Source: Candidatus Thalassarchaeaceae archaeon (GTDB taxonomy: Archaea; Thermoplasmatota; Poseidoniia; Poseidoniales; Thalassarchaeaceae). From it: a DNA stretch of 45,070 nucleotides. The DNA lies in NCBI GenBank assembly GCA_013329905.1, contig DUJH01000016.1, forward strand, positions 22,192 through 67,261, given 5' to 3'. Numbering within the stretch: the stretch's first letter is position 1; each line of letters begins with the position of its first letter. Shown in pieces: positions 18,524 through 37,555 of the stretch. The position numbers were made by a program, and so were the translations under genes. The notes below the pieces were generated by a model that saw nothing but the letters and a program-made list of their open reading frames with translations, was not told the DNA's origin and made no database searches.

Positions 18524-18627
18524 TGAAGCCGAGGAGCGGACATACGGCGTTAATCGTTCGCCTCGAACCTACACATGAGGTGGTTCGGAACGAGGTGCAA
18601 AATACGAGAGGAGCCTCGGAAGAGTCG

Positions 18628-19814: not shown

Positions 19815-19900
19815 TGGTGCAGGGAGCAGGATTTGAACCTGCGAAGCACTATGCACCGGAGCTTAAGTCCGGCCCCTTTGACCAACTCGGGTATCCCTGC
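19815..19900 (-). tRNA. tRNA-Leu (anticodon UAA), type II with long variable arm, CCA encoded
   Basis: The rc reads GCAGGGA-TA-CCCGAGTTGGTCAAAGGGG-CCGGA-CTTAAGC-TCCGG-TGCATAGTGCTTC-GCAGG-TTCAAAT-CCTGC-TCCCTGC-A-CCA. It has a perfect 7-bp acceptor stem, a 5-bp anticodon stem with loop CUUAAGC (UAA), a 13-nt variable arm, a T-loop TTCAAAT and discriminator A. Confidence 0.9.
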
Positions 19901-20035
19901 AAGTCTGCTGGCAAAGCCATTGGACTTGAAACGAGCGGCACGCAACGCCCCCTTTTGGGGGCGCGTGGGGAAAACGATGCATTGTCGGCTCGGACCTCAC
20001 GAACGCTTTAACACCCCGCTGAGAGCCGAAGACCG

Positions 20036-22978
20036 ATGATTGCGAGCAGCAAGTCGATTCACGGGCTCGGTATCGCCCGAACTGCGGTGTTTCTCGCCTT
20101 GCTCATGTTGGCGGCTCCACTGGCTGGAGTAACGGCACCTACAACCACTCTATCCGATGCTTCCAAATCGCAGGCCTCAGATGACCTTGAACTCAAACTC
20201 TACACTCTCTACTTGGCCGAAGCCAACTCCTCCTCTGGAGGTGATGGCCACATCACAACTCGTGTTCCTGAATCGGGTGGTCAATCGACTGCGAGTGCCC
20301 TCGATTCGACTATCGAATTCAGCACCGGCGACCTCATGAGTATGTTGATGATCAACGGCCGCCCCAAGCACGGTTCTTCCTCAGGTCAATTCTACATCCC
20401 AGTGCAACTTTTCCTCCGTGCACAGGGGCCGAGTAACTCCCAGGTCACTTGGGACATTACTATCAGGGCCAATGGTGCCACAGTAGGTTCCGAATCATGG
20501 GAGGCTGATGCGTGCAATCCCGGACTCACGAATTCATGTAATTTCGATCATGAACTCTTTGAGGTCATCCTCGACGATGACGAGGAAGGTTTCGAGGTCG
20601 AGGATGGTAAGGAATTTACTGTTGAGATTTCCGCTGAAATGACCGGTTGCGAGAGCGGGGGTGGTCCTTTCGGAGGCAGTTGTGAGGCTGAGATTGCATG
20701 GAATGAAATCGATGATGAGAGTAACCGTTACTCTCAGTTGGAGGTTGAATCTAATGCCATTGCCGATAGCGAGGTCATCTTACAACGCGACGGTGCTGAA
20801 CTAGCCGATGGCGCCGAACTTGAATGGTATCCGAATGATGTTCTAGCCGACCGAACCATGCAGTTCTCCTTCGATGTCAAGAGCGCCTTTGGGCGTGAAG
20901 ACATGGATTCGGTTCGCCTTTTGATGCGCGACCCAGACGGAAATTATCGCGTTGATCACGAAGTTTCTTCTGACGACGATGGCATCCGCGACACTAGTCA
21001 AGGAATCTTTGGCGAATACACGTGGACATATCCGAGCGGATTACCATCTGGCGAGTATAGCGTTGAGCTCGAAATCACCGACGTGCAAGGTAATGCCTTC
21101 CTCGTCGAGCACGATCCTGTTGAGATGAAGCAGTGGGGAGTCGCAATCAATCACCGCGAGGACCGAACCGTAGAGTATGTGGCTCCCTCCGAGACGACTC
21201 CAGTGCCGCTGCAACTCGTCCATCGCGGAGATTCCACCAAATCTATGACAGTCGAACTCGAGTTGCTCACCAATCTTGGTAGCGCTTGGTTGGTCGAGTT
21301 TGATTCCCCCGGCGGCTACACTCTGAATTCTGGGGGGGACATCCTCAATCCGATTCTAACCATCACCGCCCCAGATGATTTGACAGGAACTCCTGACAAG
21401 ATCGAAATTAGGGCGGTGGCAGAAGCTACCATCGAAGGAGTGCAAACTGTGGTCCACCAAGACCTGCTCTCTCTCGATCTGGAGAAACTCGAAGTTTACC
21501 AGCCACCCGATGTATCGGTGTGGGACGAGGACCACGAAGTCCCAATCGCCAACTCTAGCCGTCCAAGTGACATAGACGCGACAATTCCTCGATACGTCGA
21601 GGACAATCAATTCACCACTTTCTTGCTTGAGATTTTCAACACTGGATTTGACACAGATACATTCCGTGTTGACGTCCTCAAACGTTCAAAGACCATCATC
21701 CAGATTTACGATAATGACACTGGCGAGAGAATCCTCGAAGATGATGGAGATGGCACATTCCACATCCCTGCTCTCGAGCGTCATTCAACTCAGGTTCTGC
21801 GCTTCAATGTCAAACCATCTGCTGACCGAGAAGACCCCGATATCGGAATGCTCGAGCTTGAGGTGATTAGCACTGGAAACGCCTCACTGCGGACTACAGT
21901 GGAGTTCACAATCCAGCGTACCTTTGGAATCCGCGCGGAGGTTTCTCAGGACTGTGATGGCACGCCACTCGGTCACATTCAGGTTTCTCTCTGTTCATCT
22001 CTCTCCGACCCAGAAGTGAACCTCCGCGCGCGTATAACCAATAGTATGACCAGCGGTGCATCCGCCTCACAATGGCGGATTGTCAATCCTGCCAGTCTCT
22101 CAGAGAATACGGACCGTAACGCGGCCTACGGGCAGTGGAATTATCGTATCCTCGACGAGAACGGCTCAGCCCTGCCGACGGTGTCGCTAGGGCCCGGGGA
22201 TTATACTGAAATCTTCGTCGTTGTCACTCTAACCAATCAAGTCGTCGTCGGCAATCACACAGTATATCTCAGAATAATTGAGGAGACCTCAGATTCCAAT
22301 CCACGTTACTTCGATCTCCCAATGGTCTTCGAAGTCGATGCAGACGAACCGGACCTTGAGATTGTCCAAGTCACTTCGAATAGGAAACTCGCTCCAGGCG
22401 AGGATTACGACTTCCAACTCAAGGTCCGCAACAAAGGAAACAGCCCTCTAATCGTCCTCCTTGATGCCGAGGCCGTCGGAGCTACTGGGTGGACGGTCGA
22501 TATCGGTGGTCCAACTGGCTCTCGACTTATCGAACTCGACGCTTTCGAAGAAGTCACTTTCCACCTCGAGGTCTCGGTTCCAGCCTCGGCCAATAACGGA
22601 GATCAGGTAGTCGTTACTGTGACTGCAGAACCGCACGATACAGATCAGAGTTGGCCAGAGGAGTTTACCGCTGAGGAGGAGGTCACATTGGTCGTCGGAA
22701 TTGACGCCATCTTCGATCGTCTGATGAATGAAATTACCAACCCTCGTGCTTCGACTCTCATCGTCATGGTAGTTGCCATACTGCTAGTTTTCGGAGGAAT
22801 CCAGAGCAGGATGAACCGTAGGAAATGGGCAGCCCACCTAGCGCTTCTTGAAGCGATGAACGACGAGGATGAAGAGAATGAGGAAGAGGATATGGGTGAA
22901 GATATCCCTGCTCCTGTTACTGAGGAAGAAGAGCCAGATGAGATGGTTTACGATGATGATGACATCGAACTCATCTGA
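20036..22978 (+). CDS. Large secreted, C-terminally anchored surface protein (CARDB/NEW3-like, COG1470-like beta-sandwich repeats) with a highly acidic cytoplasmic tail
   Basis: 980 aa. Has a signal peptide (ARTAVFLALLMLAAPLAGVTA). Segments such as LKVRNKGNSPLIVLLDAEAVGATGWTVDIGG...FHLEVSVPASANNGD are typical of archaeal CARDB/NEW3-type surface proteins. A TM (STLIVMVVAILLVFGGIQS) is followed by a tail ending DEDEENEEEDMGED...EEEEPDEMVYDDDDIELI. Confidence 0.75.
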   Translation: MIASSKSIHGLGIARTAVFLALLMLAAPLAGVTAPTTTLSDASKSQASDDLELKLYTLYLAEANSSSGGDGHITTRVPESGGQSTASALDSTIEFSTGDLMSMLMINGRPKHGSSSGQFYIPVQLFLRAQGPSNSQVTWDITIRANGATVGSESWEADACNPGLTNSCNFDHELFEVILDDDEEGFEVEDGKEFTVEISAEMTGCESGGGPFGGSCEAEIAWNEIDDESNRYSQLEVESNAIADSEVILQRDGAELADGAELEWYPNDVLADRTMQFSFDVKSAFGREDMDSVRLLMRDPDGNYRVDHEVSSDDDGIRDTSQGIFGEYTWTYPSGLPSGEYSVELEITDVQGNAFLVEHDPVEMKQWGVAINHREDRTVEYVAPSETTPVPLQLVHRGDSTKSMTVELELLTNLGSAWLVEFDSPGGYTLNSGGDILNPILTITAPDDLTGTPDKIEIRAVAEATIEGVQTVVHQDLLSLDLEKLEVYQPPDVSVWDEDHEVPIANSSRPSDIDATIPRYVEDNQFTTFLLEIFNTGFDTDTFRVDVLKRSKTIIQIYDNDTGERILEDDGDGTFHIPALERHSTQVLRFNVKPSADREDPDIGMLELEVISTGNASLRTTVEFTIQRTFGIRAEVSQDCDGTPLGHIQVSLCSSLSDPEVNLRARITNSMTSGASASQWRIVNPASLSENTDRNAAYGQWNYRILDENGSALPTVSLGPGDYTEIFVVVTLTNQVVVGNHTVYLRIIEETSDSNPRYFDLPMVFEVDADEPDLEIVQVTSNRKLAPGEDYDFQLKVRNKGNSPLIVLLDAEAVGATGWTVDIGGPTGSRLIELDAFEEVTFHLEVSVPASANNGDQVVVTVTAEPHDTDQSWPEEFTAEEEVTLVVGIDAIFDRLMNEITNPRASTLIVMVVAILLVFGGIQSRMNRRKWAAHLALLEAMNDEDEENEEEDMGEDIPAPVTEEEEPDEMVYDDDDIELI

Positions 22979-23053
22979 GTCTACGCTTGAGCAACGTCCG
23001 AACGGCGCTCCATTCCGCTTAAGACCCGTATGAACCGCCGTAGGCGGTAGGGA

Positions 23054-26000
23054 GTGTGCATCTTGTACGTCGATGAGAGGGGGAATTATGCTCGAATCGC
23101 CCGACGCAAGGAGCGTTCAGCTCTTCTCTTCAGTCTCTTGATGCTGTTAACATCATATTCTGCAATCGAATTTGCATCTTGGGAAGCGATGGGTTCGACA
23201 GATACTGATGGTGATGGATTGCCATACGGTCTGGAGTATTACATCGGCACCCAACCGCAGGATTGGGATTCGGATAACGATGGACTTCCAGATGGCTGGG
23301 AGTGGCAATACGGCCTTGATCCGCTATCTGCGACTGGAATTAATGGCTCGACGGGCGATCCTGACGGCGACTCTCTGACTAATCTGAATGAATATCAATA
23401 CGGAATTCCTTCGAATTGGGATTCTGCCTCAACTCCGAACGAATTGGATAACGGCGTCTGGTGGAATGGGACGGTTCCCGTCAGCAATTGGGATGAGGAG
23501 AGCGCTATGCAACTCATTCAGGGATTGAATTCTGATGGGGCTGACGAGGATCCTGTCGGTAATCTTTGTTTCAATAACTTCGACGATGACCATGATGGAT
23601 TGGTTGACAATTGGGATGGTGATTTTGATGGAGATGCCGATTGCGCCACCGATGATGATGATGGCGACAATTTAACCGATGAGGATCCGAACGGCTGGGA
23701 TACCGATGGAGATGGAATGCCAGACGGTTGGGAGGTTGCAAACAACCTTGATCCGACCTCGAATTCCGGAGATGATGGAACAAATGGAGATCCTGACGAT
23801 GACGGATTGATAAATCTCTACGAATATGTCAATCCGGCGTGGAGCACTCGCAATGGCTCGGTTCAACCGCCTCGTCAATATTGGAGGCCCGGCCCTGACA
23901 ATAGGACGAGTACTGAATCTCCTTGTAATCCGGTCCAGAATATAGGGCCGGGTGGATGTCAGTTATTCACCGCCGAGGTCGATGGTGTAACTTACACCGA
24001 TCCTAACAATAACGACACCGACGGAGATGGTCTGAACGATTCATACGAGGCTTTGGTTCTACTGACTGATCCGACGCATATTGATACTGACGGAGATGGA
24101 ATTTCAGACGGTGTCGAAGTCAACGGTTCCTATGGTAATCCACCCCAAGCGTCTGACCCACGAAACAACAATACCGATGGTGATCAATTCGACGACGGTG
24201 AGGAGGATACGAACTTCAATGGCGTCGTTGATCTCAATGAAACTGATCCGACGCGAATCGAGGACGCTGGCGACCTTGATGGTGATGGAATACAAAATTG
24301 GGAAGAAAATGCGACCTGTACTCAGTGGAATAATTCCGATACCGATGGAGGAGGTGTCGATGACGGCATCGAATTGACTCCAGCCCACGGAACGGACCCG
24401 TGTAAATCGACTTACGAATTATACCTCGATATCATAGTCTGGGATCCATCCGATAACTCCCTGACGGTGAATAATACCACGAAATTGGATCCCACGCCAA
24501 TCGACTGGAGACAGAACGGAGAACCGATGGCTTGGTTCGAATCACCTAATGGTAGCAGAATGCCATTTTCCTATTCGTCAATCCTTGGTAATACCATCAA
24601 AGGTGTGGACAATGACATGCCATCAGGGGCGTTATTCATCGTCGTCTTGAATGGCTCATGGTGCTGGGACCCAGCTCTTGGAACAGCCAATGAAGCCCAC
24701 TGCGACGACGATTACAAGGATAGTGACGGAGATGGCTTAGCTGATTGGGAAGAAGCCCTCGGGTCTTGGGGATTCATCTCCTTCACGAACATGACAGACT
24801 CTGATGGAGATAGCGTCAGCGACCTCGATGAGGTAATCAACGGAACTGACCCTCTGGAACCATGCAACAATCTCGCTGATTTCGATGGCGATGGTCTAAA
24901 CAATTGGTTCGAGAATAGTACCGGTTGTCCATTGATGTTCGGCATCGGTGGCGGTAATTTGACACAGGACAACTACACCACCCTGTGGAATAACACTGAC
25001 ACAGATAATGGTGGAGTAACGGACTTTCAGGAATATTTCGATGGTACGAATCCACAGAACAATCCAGATGACGACATGAATCCGTTGGATACTGATGGAG
25101 ACGGAATCCCAGACACCATTGAGCAGGAGATTGGAACCGATTGGCGTGATCCCGATACCGATGGTGGTGGAATTCCCGATGGGGACGAATGTCCCCCCGC
25201 ATTCTGGGATAATGACTGTGCGGATGCACAAATGAATCCATGGGATCCGTCGGATGATATTCAGGCGAATATGATGTACTTCTTCGCTGAGAACACCTCG
25301 ATTGGTATTGATTACAACATTACGCATTACTGGCGTTGGCACACCTATGATGCGTACACAGGAGTTTCTTGGGGTGTCAACACTAGCCTCGTTGGCTACA
25401 CACCAATATACCCTAGTTGGTCAACAATGCAGGGCGTCGCTCACCAAGACTTCTGGGACGACTCGGCCCTCTATGGTTGGGAACTAGCCTACCGAAATAA
25501 CGGCATCCTCTACCCTGGTGACGAACTCATCGCGCCTCACAATGCGGTCAATTACACAGATTGGATTGATGTTGGTGTGGGAATGAATTTCTCTAATTAT
25601 ACGCGTGACGTCCTCATCGATTCTTCGATTGTAACTAATCTCTATGTCACTGCAACTCAGGTGACGATGACCGATGTAATCAGGGACAACACCACCGGAT
25701 TCCAGAATAGTTCCTACGCTAAGGATCTCGGAAAGATTGAGTCGTCGGAGAATATCTCTCGCATCGCTTGGGAAGTGGTAAATGAGACTGGATGGACTTC
25801 AGCTTGGGACCAAGTGACGGCTATCCAACAATTCCTTATCAATGGGAATAACACTACGACGTTCTTACGGAATCACGCTGGTTCGAATAGAAGTGATTCC
25901 GCTTCTACACAATTACTGACAGACACATCCTTGTGGATTCTAGAGGAGGTGCGTGAAGGAGACTGTGACGAGTACGCGACCATATTCGCTGCTATGCTCA

Positions 26001-29000
26001 GGGCACTTGACCTACCGACTAGAAAGGTCACGGGATTCTCGGGAGGAACATGGGTAGACAATGGCTTCGAAGTCTATGGTTATGACTTCTCATGGTGGGT
26101 TGAAGTCCATCTCCAAACCAATGCTAATCAAGGCGAACTCGACCTCGGATGGATTCCATTCGAAGCTTGTCCTGAGATGTCTGTTGTCGAGGTCGTCAAC
26201 GAGACTTGGTCACCAGACTCCTATGAGAGAGATTATTCCTCAGGAAACATAACTCTGAATGGTACTCTTCAATTCTCGAGCAATGCTAGCGTTATCGAAG
26301 GAATAACACTCGATCTCTACCTTGTCCCTTCGAATGACACATCTAATGTTCCCGGCGGAGCCGCGACTGCGAATCACCTAATCGGCACCGTGACGACGAA
26401 TGCAAGTGGCTTCTTCTCATTCGATGGGGCCCCCTCAGAGATGATTCAACCTGGATATGGATCTCTAGTCATTCTAACTCATACACTGGGTTACGTAGGC
26501 ATACAGGGTATCTCATTCCCGTGGATGATTAACATCACCGATGATGTCAATCTCTCAATTACTAGTCCCACACCAACATCTGAACCGATGCTCGGCGCCG
26601 GAGTGAATACCACCGTTACCGGTTTGCTCGAATGGTTCAATGCACCACAGACCGATCCTGCTCTCCTCGATACCCTCCAAGTCCTCCTCAACTACACGAC
26701 GGTCGAGGATGGTCCTGTGAATCTAATCGCTGATGTCGGTTCAGGTGGCTATTACGAATTCAATGTTCCAATTTCTGAGAGCGAACCGCTCGGATTTATC
26801 AATGCGAGTCTCGCATTCCTTGGATGGCATCAAGAGGACAAAAACAATCTCACAAATCCTGAGTATCATCTACGTCCAACAACAACTTCCTTCAATTTCA
26901 ACATCACACCATCTCCTAATCTCACCGTTACTCTCGAGGGTATTGATTCCAATATCAGCATCCTCGACATCAACGAACTCGTCTTCATCAATGGAACTGC
27001 AGTCAGTCGGGGACCTATTCCTGAGTCACTCAATGGCACACTAACCTTCCAAGTTCGCAGGACAGGGACCAATGGACCCTACACTACTCTAACGACTTGG
27101 TCTCTGAATGAGAGTAATTGGACTTCGATACCAGGTCAATTCGCGTTGTCATGGGAATTCAACGAATCTTCAGTTCCAATACCATCCGGAGAGATTGAAG
27201 TAAAATTCACCTATGCCGCAGATGGTCTATTCGCCGCCGATGAGGAGAATTTCCCTGCGACTTATGGAATCCGATCTTACGTCCAATTCGATTACATCCT
27301 GAATCCAACCACTCGTGGAAATCAAGCCGCAATCGATGTGCAATTATCCGATCACACTGGCTCTTCTGTAGCTGATTTCCCTGGTTCGTATGCGGTTGAT
27401 TTCAATGGCACGCAGGTGTGGAACGCGACGGATCCTTCCTCGGGCAGATACACAGTGGTTTGGATGCCACAATGGAATATGTTTGCCGGAGATTACACCT
27501 GGGAGATGAATTTCACAGGCTCGACTTGGCTCCGACCCGCAACAGTGCAAGATCAGATTCGTATTCAAGGACGGGCAAATGTCACTGTCACCCTCGGCTC
27601 AGATTGGACACCGAGAGGAACTACAAACTGGGTCTCTGGTGTTGCTCAAGATGTTGTCCATCTAACTCCTATAACCGGTAATAACTCATCTATTGTGATT
27701 CAACTTGAGCAACCATCAGATTTGCCACCCGGCCCCGATGGAAACCCTGCTCCTCCAATTATCATCCGATTGGCTGATGGATGGATCAATCAGACTACGG
27801 GTGAATACAATTACACATTCACCGTACCCGCAGATCTTCCGTCGTCCATTTACATGTTGCGATTCGTTCTCAACTTCGCGACCGGAGCAACATCTCCAGG
27901 TCCATACTTTACTGTGACTGACTCTGTTCGCGTCCCACTTGGAGTACAGAGCGAGTTCGTAGTTGAGGCAGAACCCTCCTCGATTATCGTCGTCGCCGGA
28001 ACAACACTGATTCTCAACGCCACCGTGACCGACAAGGCGGACGGATCCTTAGTTCCGGATGCCAATGTCGACCTTTGGTTCGACTGGGGTGGCGCGAATC
28101 AGACAGTAATCGACAGCACGGTGACCGATGTCGATGGAGTTGCCAGATTTAATCCGACTCTGCTCGCTAATACCGCCCCTGGATTCTACGATTTGAGGGT
28201 TCATGCCCCCGATGACCTGACTGACAATCTGACCGTCGAAAATGCAGGTCGTTGGATCGGAAATGAGACCTTCGTCAATCTCACCGTTCAAGTCGACAGC
28301 TCGGTTGCAATCGATTCGATTCCGGCAGAGGTTACGGCTGGACAAGCATTCACAATCTCCGGGCACGTTCTCGATGGATTCGACAATAATCGATCAGTCG
28401 AGGGGCCTATGGCAATCGAGGTATTCTTCCTCAACGATACCAGCGAGACGCTTGTTGCAAGTCACACGACGTCCAATAACGGTTCATTCACCGTCTCCGT
28501 ACCAACCGACCCACGTGGTGATGGAATTTCCAGCGGCACTAAGACGGTGGTTGTCAGTGTGCTCAACGGTACTACTCCGTTCTACCTGACGGGCACCGGT
28601 GACGCCTCGATTCTCGTGCGTGGTGTGACGCGCTTCATGGATAGAACGCCGATTATCCAAACCATCGTCGATAGGGGTTCTTCTGTGAACTTCGCGGCAC
28701 GTCTCACCGAGTATTCGGATAACGACCAACGATTGGGTGGAATGACCGTCGCAGCTAAATTCCATGACACGTGGATAGGGGAGGTCGTTACTGGTGGAGA
28801 TGGAATGTCAAATTTCTCCTTTGACGTGCCTCATGACCATCCATTGGGTCAAATCGGAATTACCCTGATGTTCAACGGTTCGTCGACATTGCATTCGACG
28901 ACCACCGTGATGAATCAGATCATCGTGCGTTCACCGACCGTCCTCAACGTCTCTGAGGTGATTGATAATCCGGTGGCGGGGGAGTCGTTCAATGTGAGCG

Positions 29001-31993
29001 GAACTCTGCAGTCGAGCAACGGCACAGGCATCATGGACAGATCAGGTTCCTCAATCGTAGCCTTCCTGACTTTCGAGATAGATGGCTCCGACTCTGGCTT
29101 CCAAGTCGTTGGCGGAGCAGTAAATCCAAATGGAACTTGGGACGCAATTGTGACTCTTGGTCTCTCATTCCCACGAGGAACTCACAACCTGACTGCGAGT
29201 TATACTCCATCGGTCAACTACTACGGTTCCAGTAGTGGAACAGGCTTGTTCGACAGCCGTGGTTATTCGCTTATTACAATCGTTGATCCCGCCGATCTAG
29301 ACCCCGACCGTCGAGTCATTCGCGGTGACGACGTTAGCGTCAACATCTCGCTAATCGATAACGCTGGCCAACTCGTCGGTAACGTGGATATCGATATTCT
29401 CGTTGATGGCATCCACCTGCAAACGATACCGACCGATGTTGATGGCCGTGCGACACTAACGATACCTGTCGATTCACTCAGAATTCAAGGACCGATGCTG
29501 ATTACGGCTGAATTCGCAGGTATCAACGGTACGACCGGACTCCAAGGAGATTTGACTTGGACTCGCGTCATAGTTCTGGCACCAACCGTGCTGGAGTTCA
29601 CAGAGATGTCCGGTTCGATGATTGCTGGAGAGAGCATCACATTCACCGGAACTCTGCTCGATGAGCACGGTCAAACTCTCACCGACAGCGGCCTAGTTGC
29701 TGGAGGCATCATCCACATCTGGATAGACGGTGTCGATGTTGGTTCGACATACACAACACGTTCGAACGCATCAGATGGGATGTGGTCGGTCACCTACAAT
29801 CTCCCACTGGATTCTAACTACGGCGCTCACACCGTGACCGCGAAATTCCTTGGAGGCTTCACTTGGGTAGACCCGATGGGTCAAGGTGATTCGCTAAATC
29901 CTGAGTATTACCTCCCGTCAAGCACAACTCAGGTATTCAACGTCACTCAGACTTCGCAGGTAGTCCTGACCACGCCACCAGGGGAGGTGGATCGGAATGA
30001 ACTACTTTTGATAGAGGGAATGCTTACCGATGGAGCTGGACGAACTTTGGGCGATAGGTATCTTGAGGTGACGATGAACAACCAATTCCTCACTGGATTA
30101 CAGGTTACAGAGAATGGCACTTTCAGCATCTACGTCCCTATACCTCCTGATATGGAACTCGGGCCTCGTCTGGTCAAGATCACATACGCTGGAGAAGAGT
30201 TCATCCTCGCATCGAATTCGACGACCGTATTCACCATCTTTGGTCCGGCAATAGTCGCCTTGGAGCCTCCAGTAGCCCATGCAGTCGGCGATGAATTGAG
30301 GCTGCGAGGAACTGTTCGAGACAACCTTCCTCAAGGTTGGCTCGCGAACCATTCAATCGAGATATTCATCGATGGAACTTTGATCGGAATAACAACCACC
30401 GATGAGAACGGTGATTGGGCTTACAATTGGGTAATCTCTGACTTCCTCGACGTTGGAATCCACACAATCACCGTCTCTGCACCTGCACAAGGTTACCACC
30501 GTCCGGGAAGCGTCGACGGGAATCTGACCATTGCTTACCATACGGGAATGAATCTTCAGGTTGACGATGTCTCTGTGACGCGCGGTGAGAAATGGAATTT
30601 CAGCGGGCGACTATTCGATTCTGATACGTCCGGAGCCCCCGGTTTGGTAGGGCGAGAGATTGTGATCACACTCGATGGGGAAGAGATTCACAGGATGACT
30701 ACCGGTCCCGATGGTAATTTCATGTTCGACCACTCGATTGGATATCTAATCGCTCGCGGTGGTCATGACATTCGATTCACCTTCGAAGGACAGACGTTCT
30801 ATCTTCCTGTAGAGTACAACATGACTGTATATGCGCGAGCGGATGTGGTCATCGAGGTGCTTTGGCAAACCGATATCATCATCCGCTCAAATGACGCCTA
30901 TAATATCGAAGTTGTCGGGCGAATTGTCGAGGTCGGAGGCGAAGGCAATGTTATCGAAGAGATGGATATTGTTCTGGTCTGGAATGGTGCTGCTGAGAGT
31001 TCGACTGTGATGTGGGATGATTCGACTGGGCATTTCGACCTACGCTCACCTGCTCGGTCAACAATGCCGCCAGGAGAGCTATTACTGTCTCTTGCTGCGC
31101 TCGCCGATGCCGATCGATATCTTAACGCGGCTGAAATCGAACACATTGTGAATATCCGGGTTCCGGTGACATTCACCTTCAACCCTGATGCTCAACACAT
31201 CAAGGAAGAACAGCGCAGAATCAACGGAACCGTTGCCGTGACAGCCACCGACACAGGTCTTCCAGTGGAGGGAATCTCAATCGTGGCCCGACTGGTCAAC
31301 AGCAGTATGATCCACTTCCAGAACGTGAAGCTTACAGATGCGAATGGAATCATGGATTACGAATTCGTAATTAATGATCAACCATCATTCTACGAGACTT
31401 CTCGATGGGGTGAACTCTCACTCATATTCCAGACGGATTCACAATTGATCAGTCCGGCCGACCGATTTTGGTTAGCCAACGAACATAGTGGAATCCAGAT
31501 GACTTACGAAGACCCGGCTCCACTGTTAACTCCATGGCAAATCATCGCCTTGATTGGTGCTGCGCTCATACTCGGTACCGTGGCCGGACTGGCTCTCTCA
31601 TTGAGGAAGCGCCGGCAAGTTGCATTGGATGAGTTGGCAGGAATCTTCAGTTATACTGCGGAGCTCCTCGCAGCAGGCGATGAAATCCGCGAAGCCATCT
31701 TCAATTGCTATGAGAACCTCTGTAACATTCTGATGCGACACGGATTCCTGCGAAGGGATTTCGAGACAGTCAGGGAGTTCGAGATGGCTATTCGCAAGGC
31801 CTTACCGATTAGTGAGCAGGCTCTAGTCGCTCTCGATAGAATATTCGAGGAAGCAAGATACTCTTCTCACCGGCTAGGCGATGGCCACCGACAAAACGCC
31901 CAGCATGCTCTGTCCATGGTTCTGCAAGAGATCGATGATTTGCAGGAAGTCCCAGAGAGGGATTCCTACGATTTAGCTGAAGCCGCCGCGTGA
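23054..31993 (+). CDS. Giant (2,979 aa) membrane-anchored surface protein with Ca-binding TSP3-like repeats, a transglutaminase-fold domain, a long beta-sandwich repeat array, a TM helix and a cytoplasmic DUF4129-like tail
   Basis: A single uninterrupted ORF. It starts at GTG 23054 (alternative TTG 23063), ahead of the n-region/h-region RRKER-SALLFSLLMLLTSYSAIEFA. Domain evidence is listed under the sub-features below. Confidence 0.85.
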   Translation: MCILYVDERGNYARIARRKERSALLFSLLMLLTSYSAIEFASWEAMGSTDTDGDGLPYGLEYYIGTQPQDWDSDNDGLPDGWEWQYGLDPLSATGINGSTGDPDGDSLTNLNEYQYGIPSNWDSASTPNELDNGVWWNGTVPVSNWDEESAMQLIQGLNSDGADEDPVGNLCFNNFDDDHDGLVDNWDGDFDGDADCATDDDDGDNLTDEDPNGWDTDGDGMPDGWEVANNLDPTSNSGDDGTNGDPDDDGLINLYEYVNPAWSTRNGSVQPPRQYWRPGPDNRTSTESPCNPVQNIGPGGCQLFTAEVDGVTYTDPNNNDTDGDGLNDSYEALVLLTDPTHIDTDGDGISDGVEVNGSYGNPPQASDPRNNNTDGDQFDDGEEDTNFNGVVDLNETDPTRIEDAGDLDGDGIQNWEENATCTQWNNSDTDGGGVDDGIELTPAHGTDPCKSTYELYLDIIVWDPSDNSLTVNNTTKLDPTPIDWRQNGEPMAWFESPNGSRMPFSYSSILGNTIKGVDNDMPSGALFIVVLNGSWCWDPALGTANEAHCDDDYKDSDGDGLADWEEALGSWGFISFTNMTDSDGDSVSDLDEVINGTDPLEPCNNLADFDGDGLNNWFENSTGCPLMFGIGGGNLTQDNYTTLWNNTDTDNGGVTDFQEYFDGTNPQNNPDDDMNPLDTDGDGIPDTIEQEIGTDWRDPDTDGGGIPDGDECPPAFWDNDCADAQMNPWDPSDDIQANMMYFFAENTSIGIDYNITHYWRWHTYDAYTGVSWGVNTSLVGYTPIYPSWSTMQGVAHQDFWDDSALYGWELAYRNNGILYPGDELIAPHNAVNYTDWIDVGVGMNFSNYTRDVLIDSSIVTNLYVTATQVTMTDVIRDNTTGFQNSSYAKDLGKIESSENISRIAWEVVNETGWTSAWDQVTAIQQFLINGNNTTTFLRNHAGSNRSDSASTQLLTDTSLWILEEVREGDCDEYATIFAAMLRALDLPTRKVTGFSGGTWVDNGFEVYGYDFSWWVEVHLQTNANQGELDLGWIPFEACPEMSVVEVVNETWSPDSYERDYSSGNITLNGTLQFSSNASVIEGITLDLYLVPSNDTSNVPGGAATANHLIGTVTTNASGFFSFDGAPSEMIQPGYGSLVILTHTLGYVGIQGISFPWMINITDDVNLSITSPTPTSEPMLGAGVNTTVTGLLEWFNAPQTDPALLDTLQVLLNYTTVEDGPVNLIADVGSGGYYEFNVPISESEPLGFINASLAFLGWHQEDKNNLTNPEYHLRPTTTSFNFNITPSPNLTVTLEGIDSNISILDINELVFINGTAVSRGPIPESLNGTLTFQVRRTGTNGPYTTLTTWSLNESNWTSIPGQFALSWEFNESSVPIPSGEIEVKFTYAADGLFAADEENFPATYGIRSYVQFDYILNPTTRGNQAAIDVQLSDHTGSSVADFPGSYAVDFNGTQVWNATDPSSGRYTVVWMPQWNMFAGDYTWEMNFTGSTWLRPATVQDQIRIQGRANVTVTLGSDWTPRGTTNWVSGVAQDVVHLTPITGNNSSIVIQLEQPSDLPPGPDGNPAPPIIIRLADGWINQTTGEYNYTFTVPADLPSSIYMLRFVLNFATGATSPGPYFTVTDSVRVPLGVQSEFVVEAEPSSIIVVAGTTLILNATVTDKADGSLVPDANVDLWFDWGGANQTVIDSTVTDVDGVARFNPTLLANTAPGFYDLRVHAPDDLTDNLTVENAGRWIGNETFVNLTVQVDSSVAIDSIPAEVTAGQAFTISGHVLDGFDNNRSVEGPMAIEVFFLNDTSETLVASHTTSNNGSFTVSVPTDPRGDGISSGTKTVVVSVLNGTTPFYLTGTGDASILVRGVTRFMDRTPIIQTIVDRGSSVNFAARLTEYSDNDQRLGGMTVAAKFHDTWIGEVVTGGDGMSNFSFDVPHDHPLGQIGITLMFNGSSTLHSTTTVMNQIIVRSPTVLNVSEVIDNPVAGESFNVSGTLQSSNGTGIMDRSGSSIVAFLTFEIDGSDSGFQVVGGAVNPNGTWDAIVTLGLSFPRGTHNLTASYTPSVNYYGSSSGTGLFDSRGYSLITIVDPADLDPDRRVIRGDDVSVNISLIDNAGQLVGNVDIDILVDGIHLQTIPTDVDGRATLTIPVDSLRIQGPMLITAEFAGINGTTGLQGDLTWTRVIVLAPTVLEFTEMSGSMIAGESITFTGTLLDEHGQTLTDSGLVAGGIIHIWIDGVDVGSTYTTRSNASDGMWSVTYNLPLDSNYGAHTVTAKFLGGFTWVDPMGQGDSLNPEYYLPSSTTQVFNVTQTSQVVLTTPPGEVDRNELLLIEGMLTDGAGRTLGDRYLEVTMNNQFLTGLQVTENGTFSIYVPIPPDMELGPRLVKITYAGEEFILASNSTTVFTIFGPAIVALEPPVAHAVGDELRLRGTVRDNLPQGWLANHSIEIFIDGTLIGITTTDENGDWAYNWVISDFLDVGIHTITVSAPAQGYHRPGSVDGNLTIAYHTGMNLQVDDVSVTRGEKWNFSGRLFDSDTSGAPGLVGREIVITLDGEEIHRMTTGPDGNFMFDHSIGYLIARGGHDIRFTFEGQTFYLPVEYNMTVYARADVVIEVLWQTDIIIRSNDAYNIEVVGRIVEVGGEGNVIEEMDIVLVWNGAAESSTVMWDDSTGHFDLRSPARSTMPPGELLLSLAALADADRYLNAAEIEHIVNIRVPVTFTFNPDAQHIKEEQRRINGTVAVTATDTGLPVEGISIVARLVNSSMIHFQNVKLTDANGIMDYEFVINDQPSFYETSRWGELSLIFQTDSQLISPADRFWLANEHSGIQMTYEDPAPLLTPWQIIALIGAALILGTVAGLALSLRKRRQVALDELAGIFSYTAELLAAGDEIREAIFNCYENLCNILMRHGFLRRDFETVREFEMAIRKALPISEQALVALDRIFEEARYSSHRLGDGHRQNAQHALSMVLQEIDDLQEVPERDSYDLAEAAA
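23201..25260 (+). repeat. Array of at least 15 thrombospondin-type-3-like calcium-binding loops (protein-level repeat inside the giant ORF)
   Basis: Repeated Dx[DN]xDGxxDxxE motifs: DTDGDGLPYGLE, DSDNDGLPDGWE, DPDGDSLTNLNE, DTDGDGMPDGWE, DPDDDGLINLYE, DTDGDGLNDSYE, DTDGDGISDGVE, DLDGDGIQNWEE, DTDGGGVDDGIE, DSDGDGLADWEE, DSDGDSVSDLDE, DFDGDGLNNWFE, DTDNGGVTDFQE, DTDGDGIPDTIE, DTDGGGIPDGDE. Confidence 0.8.
25901..26173 (+). other. Transglutaminase/cysteine-protease-fold core inside the giant ORF (non-canonical triad positions)
   Basis: REGDCDEYATIFAAMLRALDLPTRKVTGFSGG...DFSWWVEVHL...GWIPFEACP. The Cys motif is intact (Cys971). The canonical His position reads Ser1013 and the canonical Asp position reads Glu1037. 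Confidence 0.6.
26240..31530 (+). repeat. About 1,750 aa of divergent beta-sandwich (Ig/carboxypeptidase-regulatory-like) repeats, very rich in N-x-S/T sequons
   Basis: Recurrent units of about 95-110 aa of the type ...I.G.V.D..G.P..G..V.......G....T.T...G.F....P... Examples are ILNATVTDKADGSLVPDANVDLWFD...TVTDVDGVARFNP and FTISGHVLDGFDNNRSVEGPMAIEVFF...TSNNGSFTVSVP. Repeat number is an estimate by eye. Confidence 0.55.
31625..31930 (+). other. DUF4129-like cytoplasmic tail following the C-terminal TM helix (TM about 31540-31605)
   Basis: After IIALIGAALILGTVAGLALSL-RKRR comes ...IREAIFNCYENLCNILMRHGFLRRDFETVREFEMAIRKALPISEQALVALDRIFEEARYSSHRL. The T-x-REF...L..L...FE.ARYS pattern is characteristic of DUF4129. 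Confidence 0.6.
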
Positions 31994-32023: not shown

Positions 32024-32506
32024 TCAATCGAATTTTAAACGAAGGATTTCTCCATCCAACACTGCCGTATCGACGGCCAATGCGGGTGGCAGTGATAGGG
32101 TGTGAACCAAGCCACCAAATCGTTCTGGGGCGATAACGCGAACCAATCTTCGCCCATCGCCGATGCTCGTGCTCACCATCAAATCGGTAAGAGTCTCGGT
32201 CTCGAGAGTGATATCGAATCCGGCTCGGGCAGATGCGTCATCGAGTTCGTCAAACGAAATATTCGGAGTTTCAAACGAACGAGCCGCCGTCATCGAACTT
32301 TCGACGCTCCCAGATGCCATTTCTACGACATTTCCGTGATTCCGTCTTACTGAATCGAGGTGTGGTAAGTCGGCGAGGAAGAGTTGATGCATCGATTCAG
32401 CACTCACATCTAATCCATGTTCAGCACCCTCTGATGAGGACATCCTCAAGTTCTCGATTCCCTCGATATCGACTCTTTCCCACATCGCTCTCGTACCCTC
32501 CAACAA
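32024..32506 (-). CDS. Hypothetical acidic protein (160 aa)
   Basis: An ORF 30 nt downstream of the XPD-like gene on the same strand. The C-terminal part (GFDITLETETL...VHTLSLPPALAVDTAVLDGEILRLKF) only faintly resembles an Hsp20/alpha-crystallin-type beta-sandwich. No firm motif. Confidence 0.45.
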   Translation of the reverse strand: MLEGTRAMWERVDIEGIENLRMSSSEGAEHGLDVSAESMHQLFLADLPHLDSVRRNHGNVVEMASGSVESSMTAARSFETPNISFDELDDASARAGFDITLETETLTDLMVSTSIGDGRRLVRVIAPERFGGLVHTLSLPPALAVDTAVLDGEILRLKFD

Positions 32507-34642: not shown

Positions 34643-37555
34643 TCATCTGAGAATGATTGCTTCCGAATCTCTGCTGTCGAGTACCACTTTCAGCGGGGAG
34701 TCGAGTCCGATGTGACGCAATGGCCCGATTTCTTCCTCGCTGTCAACGTTGTCTAACCAATCGAAATCCAACATATCATCGGCTGTAATAGTCAGATATC
34801 CAATGTTGAAAGTGACTATGTTTTGGAAGAAGTGGGTGCCTTGACTGGGTTCGACGTGGATATCTGACATTGGCACTTCAATGATGGCTTTCGCTCCCCT
34901 AATTTGTTCCCACGAAACCGGCACTCCCAAAGATGGGTCAGAAGAACCCCAACGCCCAGGTCCTATCAGCAGATATGGGCGTCCTGCTGCTCGCAGTTTT
35001 GCGTCGATTGCCTCGATATGGTCTGTGAGATTGCTTGTTCTCATTCGGTCGAGTCGATTAGGATGAATATAGACAACATCTCTGATATCATCGATTACTC
35101 CGTTGCCGAGCGCGTGGCTCGACATACAGATCGCTCGGGTACGGTCGACCTCGCTCATGTCGATATCGATGTCGACCGTTTCCTCAAGGATTGGACGGAC
35201 TTGGAGAAGAGCAAAAATTTGTGTGTCCGTCTTCTCATCGAGGATTAAGGCGAATTCGATCTCTATTGGTGAATTCAGATATGCTTCGCACCGTGTCAAA
35301 ACGTGATTTAAAATCCCTGCTAGCGGCACTCGCTTGTGTTTGAGAATTGGTGCGAAGGTCACGACTCTTGGGCCTCCATCCGCCTTCACCGAGTCGACAA
35401 TCCTGTCATCGGCCACGATGTAGGTCGAGCCGACCAAGTCGAGTCTCCCATCACTCTCAGCATCCTTCAAACTCAAATTGACGAGGTTTGCTGCCTCATC
35501 GGGTGATACCGGCTTCTCAGATGCTCCCATCGGTATAGCCCAGAAACTCGTCTGAGAAGTCTCCAGCATCGATTCAGTACTATGGAATTGGTGAATCCTT
35601 TTCGGTTGCCCCGGGCTAAATCTCAGGCACTTTTCACCTGATGCGACTTGGCGACCGAGGCCGATGCAAACCGCAGCAATTCCACCCTCTGCCTTCAGCG
35701 GGGAGACTGGGTAATGATTGCGCGAACGGGCAGCCCCAGAAATATGTGGATAGAATCGCCCATTGACCTCGCGGCCGACCAATTCTTGGATGACCACGGC
35801 CATACGCTCATCCTCGATATGCGATGGGGTGGAGGAAACGTACGCCTTCGCTCCCTTGTGGTATGTTGAGGCATAAACCAGTTTGATTGCTTCCTCCAAG
35901 CGAGTCAATCGCACAGAGAGGTCATGGTGATCATTCGCCAGCATGTGAGTGGAGTAGACTCCCGCGAATGGCTGGTGGCTCGCATCCTCGAGCAGGCTCG
36001 ATGAGCGAATCGCCAGCGGCCTCCTCAAGCGCGAAACAATCGTAGTCAAATCTTCGCGAATTTTCTCATCCAGCTCGCCAGCGAGGAATGCAGCATCGAC
36101 CTCAGAATCTTCAAACGCCTCATGTGCGAAGCGTGAAAGATTGTTCTGCTCAATGAATTCCCCGAAGACATCTGTAGAAAGCACAACCGAATTAGGAATG
36201 ATGAATGTGACCTCGGGGAATTCACCTTCCAACCCGAGGTCAGGCATCCGTGTGAAGAAGAAGGCGAGACCACGACCTTTGCCGCCAAGACTACCCCTGC
36301 CAATTCGTTGAAACCCTGTTTCCAAATTCTCAGCATTGTGGTCTCGAATCGTCCTACTTCGAATCTGCAGAACATGCGATTGAATCGAGTCGAGGATGAA
36401 CTCACGAATCTCTTCTGTGGTATCGAAGTCAGAGCGCTTGAGTGGGCGAATCCGAGCAGCGAGAGTAAACTCGGTTCGAGTACGAAGCCAATGTGAGAAA
36501 TGATTCCGCTGGGCATGGTGAACTACGGATTCAATCGGGGCCTCCTTAAGCAGCCTTGTCAGTTCCATCAGAGTCGAAGCTCGGCCGATTTCCTTTCCGT
36601 CTGGTAATTTGAATACGAAATCTCCAAAACTCATCTCTTCAAGCATAAATTCAGCAATCCGACCGTACAATTGAGAATCCTCTTTGTGAACGAATCTAAC
36701 ATTGAGAGCCTCAGCATCTTCCTTCAGTTCAATATTTTTCGATTGAAATAGAATCGGCAGATTCGAATGCCTCGCTCGAGCATATTTGACTAATTTCAAG
36801 CCAGCATCGTCTCTTCCGTCGACCGTGTCGGGGAAATTTCCGTCGGTAAAAATCCCGATGATATTACGGTGATATTTGTCGAAGAGTTCCTGCGCGGTTT
36901 GGTAATCGCTTGCCAAGAGAATTTTCGCACGAGCGCGCAGTCTCAGAACCCTCTCATGCAGATTGCCTCCTTCACCCATCAAGCGCATCGTCTGTTTAAC
37001 GAGTTGAGTGTAGAGTAATGGCAGATAGGCGGAGTAGAATCGTCGACTGTCCTCGACGAGTAGAATCACTTGCACGTCGGCATTTTTGACATCATTAGCG
37101 ACATTTCTTTCATCTTCGATAAGTTTGCAAATCGAGAGCAGAATGCGACTATCACCGGTCCAAACAAAAATTCGGTCTATACCGTCACCAGCGTGCAAGG
37201 TTGCCAATTCTCGCGTATTGTGGCTCAGCATAACTACAGGCAGGTCGGCATTAATGCGTTTTGCCTCACGACCAAATGCATATGCATCCATGACACCGAC
37301 CCTCGCCATCGTAATGACGAGGTCGAAGTTTCTAGTTCGTAGGAGTTCGAGGGCATCGCGGGCTTGAGGGCTGTGAATCATTCGCGGTGCCTGTGAGAGG
37401 TTGAGGTCCGAGTACTCTTGCCGCATAATTTCGGCGAGATAGCCTGATTCTTCGAGCACGTAATGATCGAACGGGCTGGCGACAAGGAGCACATCTCGGA
37501 CGCGAAATGGAGTCAACCTCTCGAATCTCGCGAGGTCCGAGATGCCCACGCCCAT
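34643..37555 (-). CDS. Receiver-like domain(s) fused to a PPDK_N/PEP-synthase-type ATP-grasp domain plus a conserved C-terminal domain; function unknown
   Basis: 970 aa. There are two N-terminal CheY-like segments. The first lacks the acidic pocket (VLLVASPFD...DLVIT). The second has LLVEDS...IFTDG...ILFQS...FVHK. The ATP-grasp signature reads SLGGKGRGLAFF, PLAIRSSSLLEDASHQPFAGVYST, MAVVIQELVG...SGAARS. The C-terminus reads LLIGPGRWGSSDPSLGVPVSW...PSQGTHFFQN. I could not find a canonical GGxT(S/C)HAA swivel-histidine motif. Confidence 0.8.
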   Translation of the reverse strand: MGVGISDLARFERLTPFRVRDVLLVASPFDHYVLEESGYLAEIMRQEYSDLNLSQAPRMIHSPQARDALELLRTRNFDLVITMARVGVMDAYAFGREAKRINADLPVVMLSHNTRELATLHAGDGIDRIFVWTGDSRILLSICKLIEDERNVANDVKNADVQVILLVEDSRRFYSAYLPLLYTQLVKQTMRLMGEGGNLHERVLRLRARAKILLASDYQTAQELFDKYHRNIIGIFTDGNFPDTVDGRDDAGLKLVKYARARHSNLPILFQSKNIELKEDAEALNVRFVHKEDSQLYGRIAEFMLEEMSFGDFVFKLPDGKEIGRASTLMELTRLLKEAPIESVVHHAQRNHFSHWLRTRTEFTLAARIRPLKRSDFDTTEEIREFILDSIQSHVLQIRSRTIRDHNAENLETGFQRIGRGSLGGKGRGLAFFFTRMPDLGLEGEFPEVTFIIPNSVVLSTDVFGEFIEQNNLSRFAHEAFEDSEVDAAFLAGELDEKIREDLTTIVSRLRRPLAIRSSSLLEDASHQPFAGVYSTHMLANDHHDLSVRLTRLEEAIKLVYASTYHKGAKAYVSSTPSHIEDERMAVVIQELVGREVNGRFYPHISGAARSRNHYPVSPLKAEGGIAAVCIGLGRQVASGEKCLRFSPGQPKRIHQFHSTESMLETSQTSFWAIPMGASEKPVSPDEAANLVNLSLKDAESDGRLDLVGSTYIVADDRIVDSVKADGGPRVVTFAPILKHKRVPLAGILNHVLTRCEAYLNSPIEIEFALILDEKTDTQIFALLQVRPILEETVDIDIDMSEVDRTRAICMSSHALGNGVIDDIRDVVYIHPNRLDRMRTSNLTDHIEAIDAKLRAAGRPYLLIGPGRWGSSDPSLGVPVSWEQIRGAKAIIEVPMSDIHVEPSQGTHFFQNIVTFNIGYLTITADDMLDFDWLDNVDSEEEIGPLRHIGLDSPLKVVLDSRDSEAIILR

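Follow-up and report, generated by a model that had tools for sequence, protein, structure and literature searches.

The window analysed here is a stretch of 45,070 nucleotides (nt) from contig DUJH01000016.1 of the Candidatus Thalassarchaeaceae archaeon assembly GCA_013329905.1 (positions 22,192 to 67,261, forward strand), and positions are counted from its first letter. Its genes are those of archaeal housekeeping (aRF1, a NOG1-type GTPase, ArgRS, a 2-oxoacid dehydrogenase operon, lipoyl synthase, XPD helicase and glutamate dehydrogenase), and among them lies an uninterrupted open reading frame (ORF) of 8.9 kb, referred to as the giant gene, which is preceded on the same strand by an ORF of 980 amino acids (aa), referred to as the partner. 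The product of the giant gene is a candidate envelope glycoprotein of the order Poseidoniales (marine group II), built around a TgpA-like transglutaminase (TGase) module from which the catalytic histidine has been lost. The nearest species genome is a Candidatus Thalassarchaeaceae metagenome-assembled genome, whose TGase module is 98% identical. The giant gene and the parts of its product are arranged as follows.

23054..31993, + strand: giant ORF, 2,979 aa, defined by 119 full-length collinear homologues and by its dN/dS in windows along the alignment with the related locus L007
23054..23197, + strand: putative signal-peptide region, residues 1-48, assigned from hydropathy and a conserved pattern
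23198..25270, + strand: distal head, residues 49-739, with about 16 TSP3-type Ca-binding loops, assigned from motif counts, TSP3_bac and cysteine conservation
25271..26188, + strand: TgpA-like module, residues 740-1045, a beta-sandwich followed by a TGase-fold core (residues 956-1038, nt 25919-26167), assigned from Pfam, AlphaFold2 (AF2), Foldseek and alignments
26189..31498, + strand: Ig-like array, residues 1046-2815, about 16-17 diverged MG/Big-like beta-sandwich domains, assigned from Big_3_5 and internal profile matches
31532..31603, + strand: predicted single transmembrane (TM) helix, about residues 2827-2850, followed by RKRR (positive-inside), assigned from a hydropathy peak of 2.54 and an AF2 helix
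31604..31990, + strand: predicted cytoplasmic tail, about 130 aa, with DUF4129 (residues 2885-2953, nt 31706-31912) and a helical bundle in the model, assigned from Pfam, AF2 and conservation

The giant gene and its conservation across Poseidoniales

Inspection of the ORFs in the window confirms the single uninterrupted frame that had been described in a first-pass annotation of this DNA, running from a GTG start through 2,979 codons, for which the computed chance of escaping a stop codon is (61/64)^2979, or about e^-143. That annotation had also raised the possibility of an assembly chimera. This is ruled out by L007, a long-read contig of 1.6 Mb in which the orthologue measures exactly 8,937 nt without a single indel, together with the 119 independent full-length homologues. 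At 8.9 kb, the gene accounts for about 0.5% of a genome of 1.6-2 Mb. Without residues 1-48, the polypeptide has a computed mass of about 319 kDa and an isoelectric point (pI) of 4.05.

From 5.8 billion proteins, a search recovered 1,407 matches, and the best 120 of these, which stem from both Poseidoniales families, were studied in detail. All except one 2,660-aa record are full length (2,936-3,017 aa, 98-100% query coverage, 41-96% identity), and in the resulting alignment of 121 sequences the gap fraction is near zero over the whole length. Relatives of the TGase module turn up in no fewer than 298 species-representative genomes; the 80 of these that were fetched belong to Poseidoniales where they are named and share one syntenic housekeeping block, within which the giant gene occurs once per fetched locus. 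The most divergent relatives are P0131 (3,088 aa) and P0125, which is called at locus L086 (5237-14152) as two ORFs, of 2,701 aa and then of 249 aa with DUF4129. Either ectodomain and tail are truly separate there, or the split stems from a frameshift or from faulty assembly. Public names of the homologues are all automatic ("transglutaminase domain-containing", "DUF4129 domain-containing", "hypothetical" and, once, "AAA ATPase"). The last of these belongs to AIF13705.1, a 2,976-aa protein from a KM3 fosmid that looks misannotated; it clusters at 90% identity with P0001, which at 96% identity is the homologue nearest to the giant protein.

Selection on the gene is strong and even. Against L007, dN/dS is 0.058 overall and 0.02-0.11 in each 150-codon window, and dN is about 0.02, compared with 0.017 for XPD, 0.016 for LipA and 0.022 for the partner. 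At deeper divergence, the identity of the giant protein equals or exceeds that of XPD in each comparison (41 versus 39%, 54 versus 47% and 61 versus 46%). The giant gene thus behaves as a core structural gene under selection at the housekeeping level, unlike repeat adhesins. Its near-constant length, its lack of tandem DNA repeats and this level of purifying selection run counter to the adhesin-like character that the first-pass annotation had implied by describing the ectodomain as adhesin-scale.

Domain architecture and the altered TgpA-like module

Profile searches of the TGase and DUF4129 regions, which had been proposed at the outset, place both above the curated Pfam cutoffs (23 bits for Transglut_core, 24.8 for DUF4129 and 25 for TSP3_bac). 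Transglut_core is matched at residues 956-1038 (E=7e-11, 42.8 bits) and DUF4129 at residues 2885-2953 (E=2e-7, 31.3 bits); TSP3_bac reaches 27.1 bits, and the Ig-like domain Big_3_5 is found above its cutoff at residues 1973-2062 (E=5e-18). Only two hydrophobic segments occur in the 2,979 residues, at 23-41 and 2822-2851. The first is preceded by a basic stretch (RRKER) and followed by an A-x-A-like site (...EFASWEAMGS), with the first TSP3 repeat directly downstream. This succession of n-region, h-region and putative cleavage site, the last assigned by eye, is kept across homologues and agrees with the N-terminal signal peptide that had been suggested.

The distal head has a net charge of -144 and shares with the cytoplasmic tail the highest conservation in the protein. 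The pattern [DN]x[DN]x[DN]G is matched 18 times in residues 50-704, corresponding to about 16 non-overlapping loops, in keeping with an earlier count of at least 15. The Asp and Gly positions of the TSP3 repeats are invariant across the family, and 30-40 residues per 100 aa are invariant at 100-400 and 600-700. Twelve conserved cysteines in the head form six near-neighbour pairs; with the two in the TGase module, the ectodomain has 14 cysteines, every one of them conserved, in seven such pairs. TSP3 proteins such as animal thrombospondins and the bacterial CglD and MtsD likewise display repeated DxDxDGxxDxxE Ca-binding loops with interspersed disulfides. The likeness is confined to the repeats, as the giant protein has neither a VWA domain nor the lectin-like C-terminal domain, and the NCBIfam matches to CglD (E=1e-24, 86.5 bits where the cutoff is 400) and MtsD (E=2e-15, 56 bits where it is 800) are repeat-level matches only.

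Between the TGase module and the membrane are about 1,770 aa of Ig-like sequence, close to the 1,750 aa of beta-sandwich-like repeats originally estimated. The constituent domains recur about every 105 aa and resemble one another weakly, the internal profile matches being no stronger than E=1e-12. In homologues, this region also yields matches to CarboxypepD_reg and Big_1 and faint ones to MG2, bMG3 and MG4, and the first domain of the array, as modelled by AF2, resembles macroglobulin (MG) and intimin Ig-like domains in Foldseek. At the DNA level, the giant gene contains no tandem repeats beyond one trivial 18-nt repeat.

Hydropathy and modelling support the one TM helix that had been placed ahead of the tail. 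In the AF2 model of residues 2812-2979 (overall pLDDT 88.7), a continuous helix spans residues 16-63 of the segment with pLDDT above 90, such that the TM helix is predicted to run about 25 residues into the cytoplasm before giving way to a helical bundle. The tail was correctly attributed to DUF4129 in the first reading of the sequence, although its length is about 130 aa rather than 110. It contains the invariant motifs LRRxFETVREFE and LDxxFExARYS, 23 invariant residues within the last 79 aa of the protein, and no N-x-S/T sequon. Neither a PDB profile search nor Foldseek identified a significant solved relative of the tail, Foldseek giving no match below E=0.09. Its best matches, which are not significant, are HEPN domains (2hsb and 8yuf, E about 0.1, probability 0.96-0.99), followed by generic four-helix bundles. 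Membership of HEPN is not claimed, as these matches are insignificant and the conserved RYS[SR]H (RYSSH here, an Rx3H spacing) differs from the Rx4-6H of HEPN domains.

The relationship of residues 740-1045 to TgpA is evident from both sequence and structure, as the first-pass annotation had anticipated. In a whole-protein profile search, and likewise in a search with a 400-residue region, the sole PDB sequence match is TgpA (PA2873) of Pseudomonas aeruginosa (6g49, E=3e-6). The AF2 model of residues 740-1160 (pLDDT 88, pTM 0.86) returns the same structure as its top Foldseek match (E=1e-9, 314 aligned columns, TM-score 0.57 on the target), with animal transglutaminases next. In an exhaustive search of 1.84 billion representatives, scores drop steeply beyond the members and fragments of the giant family itself, and proteins combining TgpA_N, Transglut_core and DUF4129 are among the ensuing matches; three outgroups drawn on here (P0228, P0159 and P0193) carry TgpA_N.

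The catalytic residues tell a different story. The H-A-W-V-E motif that contains the catalytic His of TgpA reads S-W-W-V-E in the giant protein, with S1013 at the His position. Across the 121 sequences, this position is occupied by T (67), A (18), S (17), D (8), N (6), G (4) or Q (1) and never by His, and a motif scan of 81 fetched loci, mostly from species-representative genomes, found no His there either. No other invariant His lies nearby, the closest candidates being H1019 (94 of 121) and position 1011 (His in 25 of 121). At the Asp position, which is E1037 in the window, the family displays E (65), D (32), Q (12), N (7), K (2), H (2) and Y (1), so that 97 sequences have an acidic residue and 24 do not. 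Cys971, at the position of the nucleophile, is invariant (121/121). An intact Cys-His-Asp triad is therefore absent: the Cys is kept, the His is lost and the Asp position is variable. TgpA-type outgroups, in comparison, retain H..W.E and DPT. The giant family also has an insertion of 8-12 residues between the two catalytic strands, and its replacement of DPT by [ED][AP]CP introduces a second invariant cysteine, Cys1039, two residues past the Asp position. Given the conservation and pairing of the other ectodomain cysteines, Cys971 and Cys1039 are probably joined by a disulfide, and the TGase fold is probably catalytically dead, with a structural rather than an enzymatic role. Thus, of the TGase/cysteine-protease signature originally read at about residues 950-1040, the fold is borne out by Pfam, AF2 and 6g49, and the catalytic His is missing. 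The surface cross-linking conceived of at that stage is unlikely as an enzymatic activity, since the His is replaced in all 121 sequences, the Asp position is unconserved and Cys971 has an apparent partner in Cys1039.

Comparison with TgpA as a whole delimits what has been retained. In both proteins, an extracytoplasmic beta-sandwich and TGase fold precede a TM helix, with DUF4129 on the cytoplasmic side, an arrangement that is widespread and is essential in P. aeruginosa. TgpA is a protein of 688 aa, against 2,979 for the giant. Where TgpA begins with the six-TM domain TgpA_N (PF11992), the giant protein has an apparent Sec signal peptide; a TSP3 head of 690 aa has been added in front of the module and about 1,770 aa of Ig-like domains between it and the TM helix. 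The core itself has acquired a loop and a cysteine, while the triad that is intact in TgpA, whose periplasmic domain has TGase activity in vitro (PMC3507681), is disrupted. The genomic context differs as well. Among 34 scanned ORFs of the window, including every non-nested ORF of at least 190 aa, none matches MoxR, DUF58 or TgpA_N, and no MoxR or DUF58 was found within 10 kb on either side in L001-L004, L085 and L086 (four of which have Pfam tables), a search that covers these neighbourhoods and not the rest of each genome. The absence of the polytopic N-terminal domain and of the MoxR/DUF58 neighbours, observed initially in the window, thus extends to the four related neighbourhoods with Pfam tables. 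Because three of five features that define TgpA (TgpA_N, the triad and the MoxR/DUF58 context) are lacking, the giant protein is not filed as a TgpA and appears instead to be a variant built on the TgpA module.

The ectodomain is also distinguished by its potential for N-glycosylation. It contains 91 N-x-S/T sequons, where composition-preserving shuffles give 32 +/- 5 (z about 11, an excess of about 3-fold), and is alone in this enrichment among the 28 window ORFs tested. Homologues have 72-105 sequons where about 33 are expected, and at 25 alignment columns the sequon persists in 80% or more of the sequences, at ten of them in 121/121; conserved sites include N372, N419, N533, N635, N848, N1077, N1160, N1543 and N1989. 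Density per 100 aa is 3.2 in the head, 4.3 in the TGase module and, along the Ig-like array, 5.0, then 3.0 and finally 1.6 towards the membrane. This distribution suggests dense N-glycosylation of the ectodomain, heaviest over the outer two thirds. The sequon excess, the paired conserved cysteines and the promoter-like block upstream of the gene had not been noticed in the first-pass annotation.

The partner gene, intergenic elements and neighbourhood

Three further features lie immediately upstream of the giant gene.

20000..20015, + strand: promoter-like element of the partner, CGAACGCTTTAACACC, with a TATA-like CTTTAAC about 30 nt before the ATG, assigned from conservation and position
20036..22978, + strand: partner gene, 980 aa, with an N-terminal hydrophobic signal or anchor, an ectodomain of about 860 aa, a TM segment at residues 900-927 and an acidic cytoplasmic tail, assigned from hydropathy and synteny
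22996..23027, + strand: near-invariant 32-nt intergenic block, GTCCGAACGGCGCTCCATTCCGCTTAAGACCC, with a TATA-like CTTAAGA some 30 nt ahead of the giant gene's start codon and an imperfect palindrome (GAACG-N-CGYTC) upstream of it, assigned from order-wide conservation

The partner, which appears to be a type-I membrane protein, accompanies the giant gene throughout the order. It lies directly upstream on the same strand in 76 of the 84 fetched loci, that is, in every locus reaching that far upstream, and also in L085 and L086. Full-length copies measure 976-999 aa, except that of L001 (965 aa by ORF call, 961 as annotated). Listed database homologues are all at least 67% identical; identity to a Poseidoniaceae copy is 34% over 935 aa (E=1e-142), and in the most distant loci it is 29-34%. 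The pairing of the giant with a 980-aa surface protein that the first-pass annotation had pointed out therefore holds order-wide, whereas the CARDB/NEW3 likeness noted for that protein stays below the Pfam cutoffs (23.5 against 24.4 bits and 17.4 against 22.7 bits). Ig-like Pfam matches at residues 772-870 are all sub-threshold, and a profile search produced no PDB sequence match. The gene order LipA-SDR-FolB-partner-giant-small ORF-XPD (SDR, short-chain dehydrogenase/reductase) recurs in related loci, and its partner-giant-XPD core is kept in the most distant relatives.

The 32-nt block resides in the 75-nt spacer between partner and giant. Exactly one copy, on the + strand, is present in 79 of 87 sources (the window and 78 related loci), the other eight loci beginning inside the giant gene. 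In 25 order-wide sequences, 17 of its columns are invariant and its flanks are unconserved; synonymous sites in the coding sequences are saturated even between closer lineages. The CTTAAGA with which the block ends is placed as are comparable boxes ahead of other first genes of the window, including the conserved box of the partner. The block is likely to be the giant gene's own promoter, with a possible regulator site. An RNA element between the two genes was considered and set aside in favour of a promoter, as the block has no conserved complementary partner and no overlapping Rfam match, the nearest being a sub-threshold ylbH at 22820-22916, inside the partner coding region.

Upstream of the partner, CGAACGCTTTAACACC is found in the majority of 21 related loci that were examined, ranging from Thalassarchaeaceae to L001, a locus of Poseidoniaceae, and to L086; it was not seen in L003 or L085. 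Its position and the comparable boxes ahead of other first genes of the window suggest a promoter role. Farther upstream, the motifs TTGAAnCGAGCGG and AACCGATGCAT are conserved in many loci. A scan for sigma-70 promoters and terminators found sites no commoner than in shuffles, and such a scan is not applicable to archaea.

Several other features of the window are worth recording. A tRNA-Leu (anticodon TAA), absent from the first-pass annotation, is located at 19815-19900 (-), between FolB and the partner. The SDR ORF at 18406-19416 (+) overlaps the divergent lipoyl synthase gene at 17411-18523 (-) by 118 nt; its true start is probably later, given that the SDR match in more distant loci begins only at about residue 75 and that the gene in L003 and L004 encodes 253 aa. 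Convergent with the giant gene, and downstream of XPD on the XPD strand, is an acidic 160-aa ORF without a Pfam match (32024-32506, -), which probably belongs with XPD rather than with the giant; related loci with gene tables have an ORF of 140-166 aa at the equivalent place. A 970-aa ORF at 34643-37555 (-) combines a weak response-regulator receiver match with DUF5752 and the PEP-utilising PPDK_N, and was detected in 22 of 84 loci, many of which end before that position. In the 684-aa ORF at 42086-44140 (-), a BNR/YCF48-like propeller (PSII_BNR, E=1e-13) is joined with the permease domain of an ABC transporter (BPD_transp_1); after it, at 41342-42085, comes a gene for an ABC ATPase. Finally, domain 3 of the aRF1 encoded at 4641-5888 (+) contains, at residues 326-362, an insert of the zinc-ribbon/treble-clef type (DUF4379, Zn_ribbon_8).

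A candidate envelope glycoprotein and its alternatives

Archaeal surface-layer (S-layer) glycoproteins such as the SLG of Haloferax volcanii, the SLP of Nitrosopumilus maritimus and the tetrabrachion of Staphylothermus are characterized by Sec export, a C-terminal membrane anchor, strong acidity, dense sequons and Ig-like arrays or long stalks. By comparison with this general background, the giant protein has the same traits: a signal, a C-terminal anchor, acidity, dense sequons and an Ig-like array. Two-gene S-layer arrangements are also familiar, as in the adjacent SlaA and SlaB of Sulfolobales. The giant protein differs from these examples in its TGase fold, its TSP3 head and the structured domain on its cytoplasmic side, in being about twice their size, and in showing no detectable relationship to them in sequence or fold.

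Architecture, conservation, synteny, triad loss and sequon excess are read directly from the data. Considered together, the core synteny, constant length and housekeeping rate of the gene and the Sec signal, C-terminal anchor, acidity, paired cysteines and fading sequon excess of its product point to a structural envelope glycoprotein that hardly any Poseidoniales cell could do without. We therefore propose, with confidence and doubt in equal measure, that the giant is a core, C-terminally anchored, N-glycosylated envelope glycoprotein of Poseidoniales that derives from a TgpA-type scaffold and is a candidate component of an S-layer or canopy. That it forms a lattice specifically is a tentative suggestion.

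From these features, we infer glycosylation, a disulfide, layer formation, Ca2+ bridging and cytoplasmic coupling, which could fit together in the following way. The protein would be exported by its Sec-type signal peptide and held by its one C-terminal TM helix, with the DUF4129 helical bundle of 130 aa remaining inside the cytoplasm. From the membrane outward, an acidic ectodomain of about 2,780 aa would present 16-17 Ig-like domains as a stalk or sheet that could extend over tens of nm, then the TgpA-derived beta-sandwich and TGase fold and, farthest out, the head of about 690 aa. Lacking the catalytic His, and with its former active-site Cys probably disulfide-bonded to the family-specific Cys, the TGase fold would serve as a scaffold or binding module. 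There is precedent for this among the pseudo-transglutaminases erythrocyte band 4.2 and Rad4/XPC, in which a TGase fold with an incomplete triad has a scaffold or binding role; the likeness is at the superfamily level, the giant protein being extracellular and archaeal and having kept the Cys and lost the His. In the head, about 16 TSP3 loops would bind Ca2+, braced by six disulfides, and the bound Ca2+ may mediate lateral or distal contacts. N-glycans would cover the ectodomain densely, chiefly over its outer two thirds. Copies of the giant protein could then form an outer protein layer, whether an S-layer-like canopy or a glycocalyx, possibly together with the 980-aa partner, and the invariant DUF4129 bundle could couple this layer to a conserved cytoplasmic partner. 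In its fullest form, the proposal is that the giant and its adjacent partner constitute the Poseidoniales outer envelope (S-layer or canopy), made of protomers of about 320 kDa that arose from a TgpA-type transglutaminase with its active site disabled and probably disulfide-locked, and provided with a Ca2+-binding head and a DUF4129 coupling to the cell interior. This more specific picture is doubtful, and is put forward as a possibility.

Several observations weigh against an envelope role. Neither the whole-protein PDB profile nor 50 Foldseek rows include a known S-layer relative, and, to our knowledge, about 319 kDa exceeds the size of S-layer protomers. The partner has 6 sequons against 6.4 expected, an absence of enrichment that would be odd if both proteins were exposed. 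Signal peptide and topology were read from hydropathy, inspection and AF2 rather than from a dedicated predictor. The invariance of Cys971 leaves some thiol chemistry conceivable. Lastly, the "thrombospondin genes" of Poseidoniales have been read as adhesion factors (Rinke et al., 2018; PMC6461757).

This published reading leads to the first alternative, a Ca2+-dependent adhesin whose TSP3 head and Ig array would bind particles, algal surfaces or cells while the TM helix holds it on the cell that made it. Repeats of the TSP3 type and arrays of Ig-like domains are typical adhesin features, the Foldseek matches of the Ig domain include intimin, invasin and ice-adhesin domains, and NCBIfam links the head to Myxococcus CglD and MtsD, although these last matches are far below their cutoffs and involve the repeats only. 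An adhesin would not be expected to display the near-constant length and strict collinearity that are seen order-wide, nor the uniform, housekeeping-level purifying selection, the freedom from tandem repeats and the single copy per fetched locus within a core syntenic block. We consider this explanation unlikely as it stands, while noting that adhesion and an envelope role are mutually compatible.

A second alternative takes its cue from the tail, through which the first-pass annotation had thought outside-in signalling conceivable. In a transmembrane sensor or receptor, the ectodomain would sense Ca2+, a ligand or mechanical load and signal through the TM helix to the DUF4129 bundle and a cytoplasmic partner, as a TgpA/MoxR-type system with its partners encoded elsewhere. 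The TGase-TM-DUF4129 order is that of TgpA, the modelled TM helix continues unbroken into the cytoplasm, and the tail, whose conservation is equalled only by that of the head, has invariant surface motifs that are common to DUF4129 generally. A glycosylated ectodomain of 2,780 aa would, however, be excessive for such a purpose; neither the window nor the four related neighbourhoods for which Pfam tables exist yielded a signalling domain, a kinase, MoxR or DUF58; and the fold match of DUF4129 to HEPN and four-helix bundles, at E about 0.1, is uninformative. A sensor is accordingly improbable.

Still less probable is an active surface transglutaminase or cysteine protease, in which Cys971 would act as nucleophile with a non-canonical base and modify envelope proteins or glycans, as is thought for TgpA at the bacterial cell wall. 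The invariance of Cys971, the intact fold with TgpA as its nearest match and the in vitro activity of the TgpA periplasmic domain (PMC3507681) would all be accounted for. Against them are set the His position (0/121) with no other invariant His nearby, the 24 of 121 sequences without an acidic residue at the Asp position, the insertion between the catalytic strands and the co-invariant Cys two residues past the Asp position. Two other candidates were rejected outright: an alpha-2-macroglobulin-like protease trap, because there is no Cys between residues 1040 and 2884 and hence no possible thioester (CxEQ) in the Ig array, and the MG matches in homologues are faint; and a recently expanded Bap/RTX-type repeat adhesin, because there is only the one trivial 18-nt repeat, the Ig repeats are diverged and length is near-constant.

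The first-pass annotation knew of no characterised protein with this layout, and the literature and databases searched here contain none and give no published function for the giant protein. In the literature searched, no paper joins transglutaminase with Marine Group II or DUF4129 with transglutaminase, DUF4129 is scarcely mentioned, and there is neither a Poseidoniales S-layer paper nor anything on the composition of the cell surface.

Poseidoniales, which are uncultured, rank with the most numerous archaea of the plankton, and no others are as abundant in the surface ocean. Their surface is where viruses attach, particles are contacted, nutrients are captured and grazers are encountered. 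The giant protein is the obvious first candidate for the main structure of that surface, and the analysis provides concrete targets in the 25 conserved glycosylation sites, the head (for antibodies or FISH-style probes) and the promoter element. If the envelope proposal in its fullest form is correct, Poseidoniales would have a new kind of archaeal envelope, and a first hint of function would be gained for DUF4129 and for TgpA-type proteins at large. The family is also a natural experiment on TgpA, in which fold and tail have been retained without the catalytic His, and this suggests that TgpA-type proteins may have a non-catalytic role in scaffolding or coupling.

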